A stretch of DNA of 64,000 bases. Origin: a virus (taxonomy: Duplodnaviria; Heunggongvirae; Uroviricota; Caudoviricetes). Under the pieces are notes generated by a model, which made no database searches, was not told where the DNA came from, and saw only the letters and a list, made by a program, of their open reading frames with translations. A program made the position numbers and the translations under genes. The DNA lies in IMG/VR virus record IMGVR_UViG_3300031133_000383, positions 250,635-314,634 of that record, one strand, 5' to 3'. Shown here piece by piece: positions 3,314-43,514 of this stretch (position 1 is its first letter; each line of letters opens with the position of its first letter).

Positions 3314-3787
3314 ATGATTAAGCCCACACTTCTTATCTTTTTAGATTTTGATGGAGTGCTTCATTATTTCTTTCCAAAAGCTGGAATTCCAGATGAAGAC
3401 AATAAATTTTTTGCATTGATTCCCAATTTTGAAACTGTAATTAATCGCTATAAAAATCAAGTTGATTTTAAAATTGTTATTTCAAGTTCTTGGCGAGAAA
3501 TCAAAACTATTGCAGAACTGAAATCTCCATTTTCAATGGAAATTCAGAAACTTATTGTGGGGATTACACCGATTCATTTTGGAAGTGGCACTGGAAGTCG
3601 CTTGAAAGAATGTGAGATGTGGATGCAGCAAAATGAATACACTGGCAATTGGATTGGTATTGATGATAATCTGGACATTTGGAATTATCATCAAAATGTT
3701 GTTTTTTGTGAAGATGGTTTATTTAGCAACGAAATGAATGTTTTTTCTCAATGGTGTGAATCTATTATCAATAAGGAGTCCTTATGA
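3314..3787 (+). CDS. HAD-superfamily phosphatase, tandem paralog
   Basis: FLDFDGVLH, ISSSWR, VGITP, WIGIDDN. Confidence 0.8.
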   Translation: MIKPTLLIFLDFDGVLHYFFPKAGIPDEDNKFFALIPNFETVINRYKNQVDFKIVISSSWREIKTIAELKSPFSMEIQKLIVGITPIHFGSGTGSRLKECEMWMQQNEYTGNWIGIDDNLDIWNYHQNVVFCEDGLFSNEMNVFSQWCESIINKESL

Positions 3788-5131: not shown

Positions 5132-5864
5132 ATTTCAATTTTAGTTTTGATAACATACAAGATTCTTCCAATGCTTCAGGCTTATCTTTATATTTGTACC
5201 CTAAGTGCTCTAATAGATCAATCATGTCTTTAATGGACAATTTCTTTGTATAATCATTTGTACGTATTTCAAAATGATACTCATCTATTTTATCAAAGTA
5301 ATCTGGTAACATTTCTTGCAATATATCACTCACATACAGATCAGGTTCTGAATCCAAACTGTCATAAAACCATATACAAAATGTACTTTCTGATCCTCTA
5401 AATCCATTATTACCGATCATAGGCGTATCCAGTCCATTAACAATAAATTTGGCTTCATTACCGTAAGACATGTCAGGGAAGTAGAAATAAAATTCATTGG
5501 CTACTTTTATTTTATCCGTTTGATTTAACTTCTTGGTTTCTTCCATAAACTTTTCCATTACATCGCCATTTTCGTCATTTTCAAGACGCTTGATGTTTCT
5601 TCTTAGAAAGGTTTTAGCATTGAATTCTTTTGAACCTTCTTTTTCAACAGTTTTCGCAACAATATTATCTTGATTAATTATTGAAAGCTCACCATTTTTG
5701 TTTTCTATAATAAAACAGTTGTCATGACCTTTAATAGAAAACTCTCTCATCACATCACCATTACCGTCTTTATATTTTCGTTCCCGTTTAATATTGACAG
5801 TAGAGGTAAGACCAAACTGCTCTTTGATAAAATTTTTGCAATCTTCGGTTGTAATTTTACTCAT
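5130..5864 (-). CDS. Hypothetical protein
   Basis: 244 aa ORF with SD GGAG. Confidence 0.65.
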   Translation of the reverse strand: MSKITTEDCKNFIKEQFGLTSTVNIKRERKYKDGNGDVMREFSIKGHDNCFIIENKNGELSIINQDNIVAKTVEKEGSKEFNAKTFLRRNIKRLENDENGDVMEKFMEETKKLNQTDKIKVANEFYFYFPDMSYGNEAKFIVNGLDTPMIGNNGFRGSESTFCIWFYDSLDSEPDLYVSDILQEMLPDYFDKIDEYHFEIRTNDYTKKLSIKDMIDLLEHLGYKYKDKPEALEESCMLSKLKLK

Positions 5865-8720: not shown

Positions 8721-8755
8721 AAAACCCTTTGGAGGCCACTTCTAAGGGTTTTTTT
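8721..8755 (+). terminator. Rho-independent terminator (putative attenuator terminator)
   Basis: AAAACCCTT(T)GGAG-GCCAC-TTCTAAGGG followed by T7; 5' arm also complementary to 8688-8696 and 8675-8680. Confidence 0.75.
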
Positions 8756-8845: not shown

Positions 8846-8874
8846 TTGACAATGTAAAAAAGACTTGGTAGAAT
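8846..8874 (+). promoter_or_regulatory. sigma70 promoter P2 for tRNA cluster
   Basis: TTGACA-17 nt-TAGAAT with AT-rich upstream tract. Confidence 0.85.
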
Positions 8875-8923: not shown

Positions 8924-9011
8924 GGAAGATTGGCAGAGTGGTCTATTGCAGCAGTTTCGAAAACTGCAGGGTGTCAAAGCTCCGTGAGTTCGAATCTCAC
9001 ATCTTCCTCCA
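8924..9011 (+). tRNA. tRNA-Ser(CGA)
   Basis: Acceptor GGAAGAT/ATCTTCC, anticodon arm GCAGT-TTCGAAA-ACTGC, long variable arm, TTCGAAT T-loop, encoded CCA. Confidence 0.92.
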
Positions 9012-9025
9012 AGTTAAAGTTATAT

Positions 9026-9116
9026 GGTGTGTTGGTAGAGTGGTTGAATACGTCTCCCTGCTAAGGAGATAGGTCTGAAAATGGCCTCGTGAGTTCGAAT
9101 CTCACACACACCTCCA
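9026..9116 (+). tRNA. tRNA-Ser(GCT)
   Basis: Acceptor GGTGTGT/ACACACC, TCTCC-CTGCTAA-GGAGA, long variable arm, CCA. Confidence 0.92.
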
Positions 9117-9138
9117 AATTAAGTTGTAAATGTATTAT

Positions 9139-9222
9139 GGTTAGTTGGCAGAGTGGACGATTGCGGGGGACTGTAAATCCCTTCCGAAAGGCACGGTGGT
9201 TCGAATCCATCACTAACCACCA
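9139..9222 (+). tRNA. tRNA-Tyr(GTA)
   Basis: Acceptor GGTTAGT/ACTAACC, GGGGA-CTGTAAA-TCCCT, A73, CCA. Confidence 0.92.
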
Positions 9223-9245
9223 AATTTAGATGTAATGGTTTTAAT

Positions 9246-9329
9246 GGAGAGATGGCCGAGCGGTTGATGGCACCAGACTGTAAATCTGGCTCGAAAGACA
9301 CACTGGTTCAAATCCAGTTCTCTCTACCA
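9246..9329 (+). tRNA. tRNA-Tyr(GTA)
   Basis: Acceptor GGAGAGA/TCTCTCT (G1-U72), CCAGA-CTGTAAA-TCTGG, A73, CCA. Confidence 0.9.
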
Positions 9330-9433
9330 AATTAGACGTATGGTAATAAGAATTGACGCTTCTTGCAGAAGTTGTCAGGTTTAATGTAATTATTGTTATG
9401 TTATGATAATGGTTGACATCTACCCACCAATAT

Positions 9434-9521
9434 GGAAGCGTGGCCGAGTGGTTTAAGGCAACAGTCTTGAAAACTGTCGGGTGTAACAGCCCCGTGAGTT
9501 CGAATCTCACCGCTTCCGCCA
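9434..9521 (+). tRNA. tRNA-Ser(TGA)
   Basis: Acceptor GGAAGCG/CGCTTCC, ACAGT-CTTGAAA-ACTGT, G73, CCA. Confidence 0.93.
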
Positions 9522-9545
9522 AATTTAGATGTATAGCAATAAAAT

Positions 9546-9634
9546 GGACGCCTTTCCTGTCAGCGGTCTGTAAAACCGCCGCCTTAATAAGACAGGTCGG
9601 TTGGCGTGAGGTTCGAATCCTTGGGCGTCCACCA
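9546..9634 (+). tRNA. Non-canonical tRNA-Tyr(GTA)-like RNA lacking a D-arm
   Basis: Acceptor GGACGCC/GGCGTCC, GCGGT-CTGTAAA-ACCGC, T-arm with TTCGAAT, ACCA end; only 10 nt between acceptor and anticodon stems. Confidence 0.75.
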
Positions 9635-9702
9635 AATTTAGATTTATGGGAAGTATGTGCCATCATTATACTATAATTTTGGTAACTGCTGCCCACCAAT
9701 AT

Positions 9703-9790
9703 GGAAGCGTGGCCGAGTGGGTTAAGGCACTAGTCTAGAAAACTAGCGGGTGTAACAGCCCCGTGAGTTCGAATCTCACCGCTTCCGCCA
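9703..9790 (+). tRNA. tRNA-Ser(AGA)
   Basis: Near-identical copy of 9434..9521 with anticodon arm CTAGT-CTAGAAA-ACTAG. Confidence 0.88.
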
Positions 9791-10215: not shown

Positions 10216-11118
10216 TCAAATTTTTACCATTTCTAATAAGGTAAAGTAGCGTTCTAGTTCTTCGTTGGAAATATTATCCAATTCTGTTTTCTTTAAGTTT
10301 AATGATGAACACATAACAGTTTTAAGTACAATATTAAATCTACGAGAAAAATAAGTCTCTATTTGTTCATTGTCCATATTTAAGGTGTGTAAATTAAACA
10401 GTCCTTGTTTAAGCTTCTTTTCATCGTCTGTAAAATAAAGTTTGGGCTTTTCTGTCTCAGTTGTATTTATAGGAACAATACAACACATCTTAGTTTCATT
10501 GCCAAAAGGTAATTTGATTTTGAAGAATGGCTGTATGGTATTACCGACTACAATATGAATCCAGTCAACGGTAATATAAGATTTCTTAAAATTAGATTGT
10601 TGATATCCTCTGCCTTTTTGAAGCATTCGATTAAAACTCAAAAGAGACGCTTTCTTACCTTTAAATCTCAAATGTTGGCTAAAATTATCGATGCCGAAAA
10701 AGTCTTGAATAGAGCCTTCTGTCCAGAGTTCATCAGCAGAATGAATCATTTTAGATTCAACACCTGTTTTGATAAAAGAGTCTATAATCATAAAGATTTT
10801 ATCAAGATCAAGTTTGTAGGTGGCTTCAAAATAATTAGCAATAGTTCTGCTTTTTGTTGATAGGATAGATCCCATACTGCTGCCATTGGCTTTAAAGGTT
10901 ATGTCTGGATAATGATTTTTTTGATGATTTAATCCAGTTGGGAAGGTAATGTCCATTCTCCATTTATGATCATCTGTAATCGCTGTATACACAAACTCCC
11001 CTGAGCTTCCATAAACCATTTCTTTATTATCTTCATAGAAATTAGTAAACTTCATCAGGGATGAGAGTGTTTTTACAAAATGATTAGCTTCATTGTGGTT
11101 TGAGAATTTTTTGAACAT
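10216..11118 (-). CDS. Family A paralog 1 (unknown function)
   Basis: KSY.V...PF/YFKI.LP motif; SD GGAG supports second Met; ends LLEMVKI. Confidence 0.75.
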   Translation of the reverse strand: MFKKFSNHNEANHFVKTLSSLMKFTNFYEDNKEMVYGSSGEFVYTAITDDHKWRMDITFPTGLNHQKNHYPDITFKANGSSMGSILSTKSRTIANYFEATYKLDLDKIFMIIDSFIKTGVESKMIHSADELWTEGSIQDFFGIDNFSQHLRFKGKKASLLSFNRMLQKGRGYQQSNFKKSYITVDWIHIVVGNTIQPFFKIKLPFGNETKMCCIVPINTTETEKPKLYFTDDEKKLKQGLFNLHTLNMDNEQIETYFSRRFNIVLKTVMCSSLNLKKTELDNISNEELERYFTLLEMVKI

Positions 11119-11174
11119 TCCGATCTCCAAAATATTCTCAATTATAGCATATAGTATAAAAAAATGGTAGTATT

Positions 11175-12213: not shown

Positions 12214-13122
12214 GTGATGTATCAAATTAAAACTGTTGATAGAAATAAAAAAGGCCGAGATTTTATTGTAGGCGATATTCATGGAATGTATGATCACTTG
12301 TTAAAACTGCTAGATTCAGTAAATTTTGATAAAAATATTGATCGGCTGTTTTCTGTTGGTGATCTTATAGACCGTGGACCAAAATCATTGGAAGTTATTT
12401 TATTAAACAAACAGCCTTGGTTTTTTTCAATATTGGGCAATCACGAAACGATGTTGCTTACAGGCCATCTAGCCTACTCAAAAGATTGGTTCAAGCATTT
12501 ATCCAAGAAAGATAAAAAAAATTGCTTAGACATTATAAAAAAATTACCTATTGCCATAGAGATAGATACCTCTATTGGTAAAATTGGCTTGGTTCATGCT
12601 CAAGTTCCTTTACAGTTCAATGACTGGAATATATTTAAACAATATTTGAAAGAAGCCAATCTATCCTATGATATGAGTTCAAAGAAAGATTCTGATAGAG
12701 TCATTCGAGAGGCTTTATGGGGCAGAAAAAGAATTTATATGGAATTGAAAAAAAATGGTACAAGCTCTGCTCGGAAAGCCTACATGAAATTTGTAAAAGA
12801 TGGATTATGGAATCGTACGACCTTATACAGAATCATTACAACACGTAAAACATTGCCCTACATCAAGCATGGAATATCTTTTTCATTTAGATATATCAAA
12901 GAAAAATTCAAACAAAAAGTCCAACATAGAAGTTATATTGACAATATCAAATATACTGTACATGGGCATACGCCAGTCAAAATGCCTTTGTTGCTGGGTA
13001 ATCAATTTTTTATCGATACAGGTGCTGTTTATGGTATCAAGCAAAATAAAAAAGGCTACTTGACCCTTATAGAAATTTGTAATGACATGAAAATACATCA
13101 GTTGCTAATTGATCATGGTTGA
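12214..13122 (+). CDS. PPP-family metallophosphoesterase (PphA / lambda phosphatase-like)
   Basis: GDIHG, VGDLIDRG, GNHE, HGHTP, IDTG motifs. Confidence 0.88.
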   Translation: MMYQIKTVDRNKKGRDFIVGDIHGMYDHLLKLLDSVNFDKNIDRLFSVGDLIDRGPKSLEVILLNKQPWFFSILGNHETMLLTGHLAYSKDWFKHLSKKDKKNCLDIIKKLPIAIEIDTSIGKIGLVHAQVPLQFNDWNIFKQYLKEANLSYDMSSKKDSDRVIREALWGRKRIYMELKKNGTSSARKAYMKFVKDGLWNRTTLYRIITTRKTLPYIKHGISFSFRYIKEKFKQKVQHRSYIDNIKYTVHGHTPVKMPLLLGNQFFIDTGAVYGIKQNKKGYLTLIEICNDMKIHQLLIDHG

Positions 13123-43037: not shown

Positions 43038-43514
43038 ATGACTACTCACCATCATGAAGACCCTCAGCAGTGCTATAAGATGAGTAAAAATTATCTTGTA
43101 ATGGAAACTAATGGACTTTTATATAGTGGTCATTTTGATTTGGTTTCTCACATTCTCAAAAATAAAGCACATCTGGAAAAACTTGGCAATATGCGAGTTG
43201 GTGATCTTCTTGGCACACATCTTGATGGCTATTCTTTATCTATAAAAAGAAGTCCAAAAGGGCACTATGTTGTTGAGCCTAATGATGATAAAAAAAGAAG
43301 CAACTACATAGTCCAAATTGTAGATATTGATGATTATGAAAAACTGAATTATCTAGGCACTCTTCTTGAGGCTCGCAATGTTATTGAAAATATCAATAGC
43401 ATCATCGAACTGGCAGAAAATATGCAATTGATGTTTACATCTTCTATTTTCAATATCACTATTTATGCTTGTCGTAAAGATAATCTGATTATTTTTAGCG
43501 GTAAGAAATTTTGA
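43038..43514 (+). CDS. Hypothetical protein
   Basis: SD GGAG; 158 aa. Confidence 0.6.
   Translation: MTTHHHEDPQQCYKMSKNYLVMETNGLLYSGHFDLVSHILKNKAHLEKLGNMRVGDLLGTHLDGYSLSIKRSPKGHYVVEPNDDKKRSNYIVQIVDIDDYEKLNYLGTLLEARNVIENINSIIELAENMQLMFTSSIFNITIYACRKDNLIIFSGKKF

Follow-up and report, generated by a model that had tools for sequence, protein, structure and literature searches.

Introduction

The described transfer RNAs (tRNAs) closest to the gene reported here are the canonical class II tyrosine tRNAs (tRNA-Tyr; RF00005), the (8/4) tRNAs of phage tRNA clusters, the selenocysteine tRNA (tRNA-Sec; RF01852), and the mitochondrial tRNAs that lack a D arm. The (8/4) allo-tRNAs and the (8/4) tRNA-Ser and tRNA-His of phage clusters combine an 8-bp acceptor stem and a 4-bp T stem into a 12-bp branch, have a long variable region, and occur in tRNA clusters of uncultured phages and some bacteria (Mukai et al., PMC5389517); the paper describing them does not mention a pseudoknot and contains tRNA-Tyr in its reference list only. 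tRNA-Sec has a lengthened acceptor stem, a 6-bp helix at the D-stem position, and a long variable arm. In D-arm-less mitochondrial tRNAs (nematode, mammalian mt-tRNA-Ser; PMC7609411), no D hairpin separates the acceptor stem from the anticodon stem. Here, we describe a tRNA-Tyr-like gene without a D hairpin, at positions 9546-9634 of a 64,000-nt stretch of phage DNA (the window; bases 250635-314634 of the 437,043-bp virus record IMGVR_UViG_3300031133_000383), and a family of homologs that share its pseudoknotted layout. We read this odd tRNA-Tyr gene, with a probability of roughly 0.6, as an intact member of a conserved tyrosine tRNA family with a rewired core, i.e. a working tRNA that possibly evades nucleases.

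Phage-borne tRNA-Tyr has a documented role in defence. Septu and retron-Eco7, the effector of which is PtuAB, block phages through cleavage of Escherichia coli tRNA-Tyr in its variable arm, and T5-like and T6 phages escape by means of their own tRNA-Tyr; that of T5 is reportedly resistant to cleavage through a distinctive variable loop (PMC11555353, PMC13096335).

Architecture of the gene

The odd tRNA-Tyr gene lies in an array in which ARAGORN and Rfam recognise six canonical tRNA genes, all of class II, and it occupies a gap among these called tRNAs (9522-9702). ARAGORN calls the six surrounding genes and leaves 9546-9634 uncalled, and no Rfam family, RF00005 (29 bits) included, matches this interval at its gathering score. 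tRNA-Sec gives the best sub-threshold match, 23.7 bits where 47 are required; the anticodon GUA and a 12-bp branch, where tRNA-Sec has UCA and 13 bp, likewise speak against that class.

The features expected of a tRNA in general are nonetheless present: an unpaired discriminator followed by CCA, a 12-bp acceptor/T branch built as 8 + 4 bp, and an anticodon arm with a 5-bp stem and a 7-nt loop (CUGUAAA) that has U33 and a purine at position 37. The acceptor sequence GGACGCC (9546-9552) is complementary to GGCGTCC (9624-9630), and A73, G1-C72, and G34 U35 A36 of the bacterial tRNA-Tyr identity set are all present. What is missing is the D hairpin: only 10 nt (9553-9562) occupy its site, so that 2 nt, a 6-nt strand, and 1 nt stand between the acceptor and anticodon stems. 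The 6-nt strand is complementary to a second strand in the long variable region (helix S1), and the variable-stem position, which in bacterial tRNA-Tyr belongs to the long arm presented to the C-terminal domain of the tyrosyl-tRNA synthetase, holds a covarying 4-bp stem (helix S2), the loop of which is tied into S1. The original prediction, made from this sequence, had described a D-arm-less gene with an anticodon arm, a T loop, an A73-CCA end, both complementarities, and a TCGGTT segment (9597-9602), and each of these elements is in place.

Set against canonical class II tRNA-Tyr(GUA), two examples of which lie in the same array (9139-9222 and 9246-9329), the odd gene shares the CUGUAAA loop, A73, G1-C72, an encoded CCA, the UUCGAAU T loop, a long variable region with a short stem beside the T arm, and a place in tRNA arrays. 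It differs in having no D hairpin, in carrying a D-stem-like partner strand and a GG 3' of the anticodon arm, in its pseudoknotted core, in an 8/4 rather than 7/5 branch, and in scoring below the RF00005 threshold. The (8/4) tRNAs of phage clusters share its 12-bp branch and long variable region; unlike it, they retain the nested cloverleaf with an ordinary D hairpin and have serine, histidine, or suppressor identities (PMC5389517). tRNA-Sec differs by its 13-bp branch (8/5 in bacteria) and a closed D hairpin of 6 bp and 4 nt. Mitochondrial D-arm-less tRNAs have a flexible connector, shrunken T arms, and specialised mitochondrial factors (PMC7609411), whereas the odd gene has a helix rebuilt in trans, a canonical T loop, and a bacterial setting. 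We found no description of a pseudoknotted tRNA-Tyr without a D hairpin in the literature searched, and the family is apparently both undescribed so far and widespread.

Homologs and covariation

More than 55 distinct homologs were found, in phage contigs, metagenomes, mobile tRNA arrays on bacterial chromosomes, and cultured Pseudomonas phages. Several searches did not reach them: an exact-motif scan of viral contigs (TTTCCTGTCA, five free bases, CTGTAAA) gave 16 matches, all by chance and inside unrelated sequence; the protein encoded beside the array (10216-11130, minus strand) led to no relatives in viral contigs; the whole array, compared by BLAST with GenBank phages, was matched in its canonical Ser and Tyr parts alone; and BLAST with the family member of contig L054 gave no match. 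A looser viral-contig pattern, a tyrosine anticodon loop followed at unusually long distance by a canonical T loop, recovered true homologs with the same layout. These form two subtypes, family A, to which the window copy belongs and which has a 10-nt 5' connector, and family B, with a connector of 8-9 nt. The same pattern found members on contigs of bacterial metagenome-assembled genomes, two of them megabase-sized.

A covariance model, R1, was built from 39 family A sequences, with the window copy in the seed alignment. It scores family A at 62-97 bits, family B at 44-52 bits, and canonical tRNAs at no more than 28 bits. In a scan of metagenome contigs that fixed only a 5' TTCC, the anticodon loop, and the T loop, and left acceptor pairing, S1, S2, and the GG free, 39 stretches were retrieved; the full architecture is present in 36 of them, at R1 scores of 70-97 bits, and the remaining three look by eye like chance matches, which is about the number expected. 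The window copy scores 94.5 bits, third best of 51 matches, partly by construction since it is in the seed. It is an archetypal family member that has S1, S2, U(Y)GG, and GUA, and the R1 search finds it as a single copy in the 437-kb genome.

Helix support was counted in a model-fitted alignment of 42 distinct sequences, which leans toward the model (Table 1). The complete 8/4 pseudoknotted structure is paired in 98.0% of cells, compared with 69% in shuffled alignments (none of 500 shuffles reaches the observed value) and 40-48% when the partners are slid. One S1 pair occurs as CG 13, GC 13, GU 9, UA 6, and AU 1; in S2, pair 38-70 is CG 19, UA 16, GC 5, AU 1, and UG 1, and pair 39-69 is CG 32, GC 4, AU 3, UA 2, and UG 1. 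Because the alignment leans toward the model, S1 was also assessed without it: the 5' hexamer forms on average 5.92 of 6 pairs with the variable region of its own sequence and 4.84 with those of other members, the best position being allowed. The 39 sequences contain 22 distinct hexamers, and 36 of the 39 form all six pairs; the CC/GG end of S1 is invariant. U(Y)GG follows directly 3' of S1 in 38/39 sequences and GUGG in the other, with both G columns at 90% or more.

Both complementarities of the original prediction, CCTGTC/GACAGG (S1) and the pseudoknot-forming CGCC/GGCG (S2), thus covary across the family. The GG that it had seen in TCGGTT proved near-universal; the contact with the T loop that it suggested for this GG is likewise a proposal, to which we return below. 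Its 7-bp acceptor stem, by contrast, has to be lengthened. The eighth pair covaries (UG 17, GC 16, AU 4, UA 4, and other 1; n = 42), and a 7/5 reading would leave the first T-stem pair open in 33/42 sequences; the family is therefore one with an 8-bp acceptor stem and a 4-bp T stem.

Close relatives point to recent selection as well. The copy on L351, a 520-kb metagenome contig, departs from that of the window only in two anticodon-stem pairs, which are swapped on both sides. The same two compensated swaps occur in contigs of other public runs, among them one from a wastewater run (contig X30), and contigs of two runs have C9593T and A9594G in S1, with both pairs kept as G.U and U.G. In these public-run contigs, the gene sits in rearranged Ser/Tyr arrays.

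These results bear most directly on the possibility that the gene is a decayed tRNA-Tyr in which the D arm was deleted and the variable region padded with filler, any complementarity being due to chance. Standard tRNA finders do not call it, and, although in the single-sequence minimum-energy fold the anticodon arm is enclosed by the CCUGUC/GACAGG helix and the acceptor stem has 8 bp, the energy is unremarkable for the composition (z = -1.1), so that a lone sequence cannot settle the complementarity. It is the comparative pairing evidence, not the single-sequence fold, that places the feature beyond chance. The original prediction had named the absence of homologs with compensatory changes as one mark of a pseudogene; instead, there are more than 55 homologs, such changes occur in every one of the five helices, the window copy ranks with the highest-scoring members, and close relatives differ by compensated pairs only. 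Covariation refutes decay, which we consider hardly credible, and an artefact of the searches is argued against by the helices that they left unconstrained. A selected alternative architecture, as originally proposed, is supported by the covariation of both helices, the near-universal GG, and the compensated differences of the L351 copy.

Table 1. Coordinates (window numbering) of the odd tRNA-Tyr gene, its parts and its surroundings, and support for its helices among 42 distinct sequences.
Feature	Position	Strand	Description or basis	Cells paired	Pairs changed on both sides
Sigma-70-type promoter, near-consensus (predicted)	8846-8874	+	TTGACA, 17 nt, TAGAAT, with TG; upstream of array		
tRNA array	8924-9790	+	Ser(CGA), Ser(GCU), Tyr, Tyr, Ser(UGA), odd Tyr, Ser(AGA); ARAGORN and Rfam		
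Whole gene, non-canonical tRNA-Tyr(GUA)	9546-9634	+	89 nt, CCA encoded; sequence and model R1		
Acceptor stem, 5' strand	9546-9553	+	8 nt; pairs with 9623-9630; eighth pair U9553.G9623		
Connector UU, acceptor stem to S1	9554-9555	+	T at least 90% in both columns of alignment A1; nearly invariant		
S1, 5' strand CCUGUC	9556-9561	+	In place of D stem; pairs with 9591-9596		
Single purine (A), S1 to anticodon stem	9562	+	Equivalent to position 26; family G 20/39, A 17/39, U 2/39		
Anticodon arm	9563-9579	+	5-bp stem (9563-9567 with 9575-9579), loop CUGUAAA, anticodon GUA 9570-9572		
S2, 5' strand CGCC	9580-9583	+	Variable-stem-like; pairs with 9603-9606; interleaves with S1 as pseudoknot		
L2, A-rich linker UUAAUAA	9584-9590	+	S2 back to base of S1; family 4-12 nt, 58% A, AA end in 25/39		
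S1, 3' strand GACAGG	9591-9596	+	Pairs with 9556-9561		
L3, UCGGUU	9597-9602	+	G9599 and G9600 likely equivalents of G18/G19		
S2, 3' strand GGCG	9603-9606	+	Pairs with 9580-9583		
Single U9607 and T arm	9607-9622	+	4-bp stem 9608-9611 with 9619-9622; loop UUCGAAU 9612-9618		
Acceptor 3' strand, discriminator, CCA	9623-9634	+	9623-9630, A9631, CCA 9632-9634; sequence		
3' trailer AAATTTAGATTTAT of odd tRNA-Tyr	9635-9648	+	Common to neighbouring canonical tRNAs		
Acceptor helix, 8 bp	9546-9553 with 9623-9630			99.7%	8/8
S1 helix	9556-9561 with 9591-9596			98.8%	5/6
Anticodon stem	9563-9567 with 9575-9579			99.5%	5/5
S2 helix	9580-9583 with 9603-9606			95.8%	2/4
T stem, 4 bp	9608-9611 with 9619-9622			93.5%	3/4

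Tyrosine identity and genomic context

The anticodon is GUA in every member of families A and B, in five clear Planctomycetota genome matches (72-79 bits; found with R1 alone, the loop sequence not being fixed, and with loops that can read UUGUAAC or CCGUAAA), and in two cultured-phage copies found by BLAST and shown in the alignment. An anticodon-free motif scan, followed by R1 over 100 of its loci, yielded no member with another anticodon and turned up only a different, 76-nt Tyr-like RNA; the non-GUA matches of a loose structural script were all spurious. Among the 39 family A sequences, A73 is present in 36 and G1-C72 in 37, and NCCA is encoded in 29 (27 ACCA and 2 UCCA).

Members examined for context adjoin other tRNA genes, usually inside arrays of 2-28 tRNAs, the exception being Pseudomonas phage Rembedalsseter. 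Four arrays of 16-25 tRNAs (L043, L054, L224, and L038) have no canonical tRNA-Tyr in the stretch examined, and the phages G311 (68 kb) and G312 (74 kb), the genomes of which are complete, carry beside this gene only two and three canonical tRNAs, respectively, none of them for tyrosine.

About 6 kb upstream of the window, its phage encodes a full-length, bacterial-type tyrosyl-tRNA synthetase (TyrRS; genome positions 243050-244309, L378:1411-2670; 381 bits to TIGR00234); a tryptophanyl-tRNA synthetase is encoded elsewhere in the same genome (L379:1495-2490). A dedicated synthetase is ruled out as a general rule: TyrRS is absent from nine other carrier records, three of them complete, and the host enzyme must therefore usually charge the RNA, if it is charged.

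Such context can also be read in terms of a decoy or sponge, a mimic that occupies a tRNA-Tyr-directed nuclease or some other tRNA-Tyr-binding host factor and is neither charged nor used by the ribosome. The core is radically unlike that of a canonical tRNA, and in the window two canonical tRNA-Tyr genes already stand beside the odd one. tRNA-Tyr is, moreover, a documented defence target, over-supply of which rescues phages (PMC13096335, PMC11555353), and small phages keep the gene as their only or nearly only tRNA-like gene, as would suit a counter-defence RNA. Yet the features that the family conserves are those needed for charging and translation (A73, G1-C72, GUA in a 7-nt loop, CCA, and the 12-bp 8/4 branch), and in arrays covering 17-19 amino acids the gene stands exactly where tRNA-Tyr is otherwise missing. 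The sequence evidence favours a working tRNA-Tyr over a decoy, which we regard as unlikely.

Arrays that carry the odd tRNA-Tyr hold further unusual genes. Five of them (L224, L054, L284, L244, and L099) include tRNA-Leu genes that, at 76-78 nt, leave no room for the long variable arm usual in bacterial tRNA-Leu.

Distribution

Members span a G+C content of 42%-72%. When R1 was run over sampled genomes, 6 of 150 further Planctomycetota had a match, and 150 further Alphaproteobacteria genomes had none beyond the seed genome; this patchy occurrence fits carriage on mobile arrays. The original prediction had taken D-arm-less tRNAs to be known mainly from mitochondria, to which, given this phage and bacterial family, they are evidently not confined.

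Several cultured Pseudomonas phages carry the gene, always unannotated: Rembedalsseter, Lyrsu01-03, and SCYZ1. The Rembedalsseter copy scores 88.6 bits with R1 and 26.3 bits with RF00005, below the gathering score of that family, and is the only tRNA-like match in the complete genome; the parts of the paper on this phage that were available mention no tRNA for it. The copy in Lyrsu01-03, phages of P. syringae, scores 73.8 bits and is 82% identical to that of the window. The Lyrsu phage paper lists one tRNA per phage, and in Lyrsu02 the gene adjoins the sole annotated tRNA, tRNA-Pro. In Pseudomonas podophages, the gene is found at the end of the genome, next to that for the small terminase.

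That position is one reason to consider a tRNA-shaped RNA with a role outside translation (an array processing signal, a primer, or a substrate of a phage enzyme), its tyrosine identity being incidental. Standard tRNA models reject the sequence, and phage tRNA arrays hold other odd tRNA-like RNAs. Against such a role stand the GUA anticodon without exception and the bacterial TyrRS identity set, retained from 42 to 72% G+C in very different phages and bacteria, and the absence of any protein partner consistently encoded alongside. We give it little credence.

Setting and related elements

The virus record has a G+C content of about 30% and an estimated completeness of 98%. Counting the odd gene, the array consists of long-variable-arm tRNAs only, four Ser and three Tyr, with diversified bodies; Planctomycetota genomes with an odd tRNA-Tyr (L386 and L389-L391) likewise cluster Leu, Ser, Cys, and Tyr tRNAs. 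The predicted promoter upstream of the array matches the consensus at 11 of 12 hexamer positions, and a terminator-like hairpin (8726-8748) lies just 5' of it. A trailer, AAATTTAGATGTA, occurs 3' of most tRNAs in the array; near-identical trailers stand behind Tyr-1, Tyr-2, and Ser(UGA), and the trailer common to the odd gene and its neighbours suggests joint processing or duplication as a unit. DNA of this array is present in public runs from phyllosphere, leaf, plant, dairy, and wastewater samples.

The last gene of the array, a tRNA-Ser with anticodon AGA (9703-9790), closely copies Ser(UGA) (9434-9521), the change in its anticodon stem being fully compensated. Its A34 is unusual in bacterial-type tRNAs apart from tRNA-Arg(ACG). 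Outside the window (375947-376020 and 389162-389237), the same phage genome has a tRNA with CUA, of amber suppressor type, and one with a four-base anticodon (agaa, according to ARAGORN). The recoding of TAG that the former could suggest left no sign, reading TAG as sense adding only 5.5% to the open frames. The open reading frames around the array, including 10216-11130 (-) and 12214-13122 (+), are mostly without family matches; one neighbouring frame has a weak, sub-threshold match to the PAZ domain (E 0.0046), and another encodes a calcineurin-like phosphoesterase (E 5.8e-15).

Family B (L042:11585-11674, L052:2707-2795, L099:10850-10939, and L098:7052-7143) has, beside its shorter 5' connector, a 5-bp S1, an S2 (CCUU/AAGG, CCCU/AGGG, or CCGC/GCGG) followed by UAA before the T arm, a recurrent T-stem mismatch, and no evident eighth acceptor pair. 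Some phage contigs hold two or three diverged, close-set copies of the odd gene (L368:5320-5408, 5141-5227, and 3697-3784; L358:269-357 and 90-176; L345:2794-2882 and 2653-2740). A third design is represented by a 76-nt Tyr(GUA)-like RNA (L103:977-1052 and L151:7724-7799; 35.7 bits with R1), in which a 9-bp long-range helix encloses the anticodon arm and there is neither a GG motif nor a second helix. In Myxococcus phage Mx1, the tRNA cluster opens with a 65-nt Tyr(GUA)-like element that lacks annotation (L394:2496-2560, record positions 43291-43355; 29.2 bits). This element has neither a D arm nor a long variable region, shows two acceptor-stem mismatches, and may be a remnant or another reduced form.

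Another recurrent tRNA-like element adjoins tRNA genes at L018, L028, L038, L056, L064, L069, and about 15 other viral loci. Its acceptor-like stem runs from UCUCUGUA to UACGGAGA-CCA; it has an internal GC-rich hairpin and a canonical T arm, and no anticodon arm at the usual place.

Discussion

The observed sequence, conservation, covariation, and genomic context make charging and translational use of the odd tRNA-Tyr likely. In the architecture that we propose, the 8-bp acceptor stem and 4-bp T stem preserve the usual 12-bp acceptor/T branch. S1, formed by a 6-nt strand 5' of the anticodon arm and a 6-nt strand in the enlarged variable region, would stack on the anticodon stem as a D stem does, and S2, formed by the first four variable-region nucleotides and the four before the T arm, would resemble a class II variable stem; the two interleave and make the core a pseudoknot. 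With the same polarity as D-stem positions 10-13, the 3' strand of S1 would lead away from the anticodon stem and place the GG, at its far end, near the usual site of G18/G19. This GG most likely touches the canonical T loop as G18/G19 do, thereby closing the elbow. In effect, the D hairpin would have been opened and its second strand and loop relocated behind the anticodon arm.

The promoter at 8846-8874 would drive transcription of the gene as part of the Ser/Tyr array, and the RNA would be trimmed as its neighbours are. A bacterial-type TyrRS—that of the host and, in the phage of the window, probably also its own—would charge the RNA with tyrosine, and the charged RNA would read UAY codons. 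The rebuilt variable/D region may be a poor substrate for variable-arm nucleases such as PtuAB of Septu and retron-Eco7, and poor cleavage would keep tyrosine decoding going during infection. The tRNA-Tyr of T5 and T6 offers a parallel, being phage-borne, sometimes the key tRNA for escape, and, in T5, altered in its variable region; it is, however, an ordinary cloverleaf, and a defence link of the pseudoknotted family would be one of analogy. By the same analogy, a 45-kb phage that has the gene as its only tRNA-like gene would fit a specific benefit better than codon supply. With a variable arm tied into its core, the odd tRNA-Tyr is a natural candidate for such escape, and nuclease evasion is a reasonable hypothesis for what the altered core may do.

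Several points weigh against a working, nuclease-evading tRNA. The GG/T-loop contact and the steric feasibility of the pseudoknot are presumed from sequence, and the link from the GG to S2 is usually only 2-4 nt long; Rembedalsseter has UGUGU instead of U(Y)GG, and the GG is accordingly not absolute. Most homologs were retrieved with patterns fixing CTGTAAA and the T loop, so that the conservation of these parts is partly built in. Because two canonical tRNA-Tyr genes are present, the phage of the window does not need the odd copy merely for tyrosine decoding. The gene occurs in contigs of two RNA-labelled libraries, yet these are assemblies in which DNA carry-over is possible and do not show transcription. 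Finally, evasion is argued by analogy with E. coli systems. We know of no tRNA-Tyr nuclease in the hosts concerned.

For annotation, the family means that standard procedures are blind to a widespread tRNA class: phages listed with no or one tRNA (Rembedalsseter and Lyrsu01-03) carry it, and arrays seemingly without tRNA-Tyr in fact have one, of the odd type. It also provides a concrete candidate in the arms race over tRNA-Tyr cleavage by Septu and retron-type defences, and the cultured Pseudomonas carrier phages make it accessible to tests. More tentatively, and at odds that we put below even, the family could represent a third natural architecture of elongator tRNAs—pseudoknotted, without a D hairpin, and 8/4—beside the cloverleaf and the reduced mitochondrial forms, accepted by ordinary bacterial TyrRS, EF-Tu, and ribosomes and spread among phages and mobile arrays through nuclease escape. 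The family may also offer a natural scaffold, orthogonal or nuclease-resistant, for engineering. Should the odd tRNA-Tyr prove to be charged and to decode, bacterial translation accommodates a different topology of the tRNA core, with consequences for the demands that TyrRS, EF-Tu, RNase P, the CCA enzyme, and the ribosome really make of the tRNA body.

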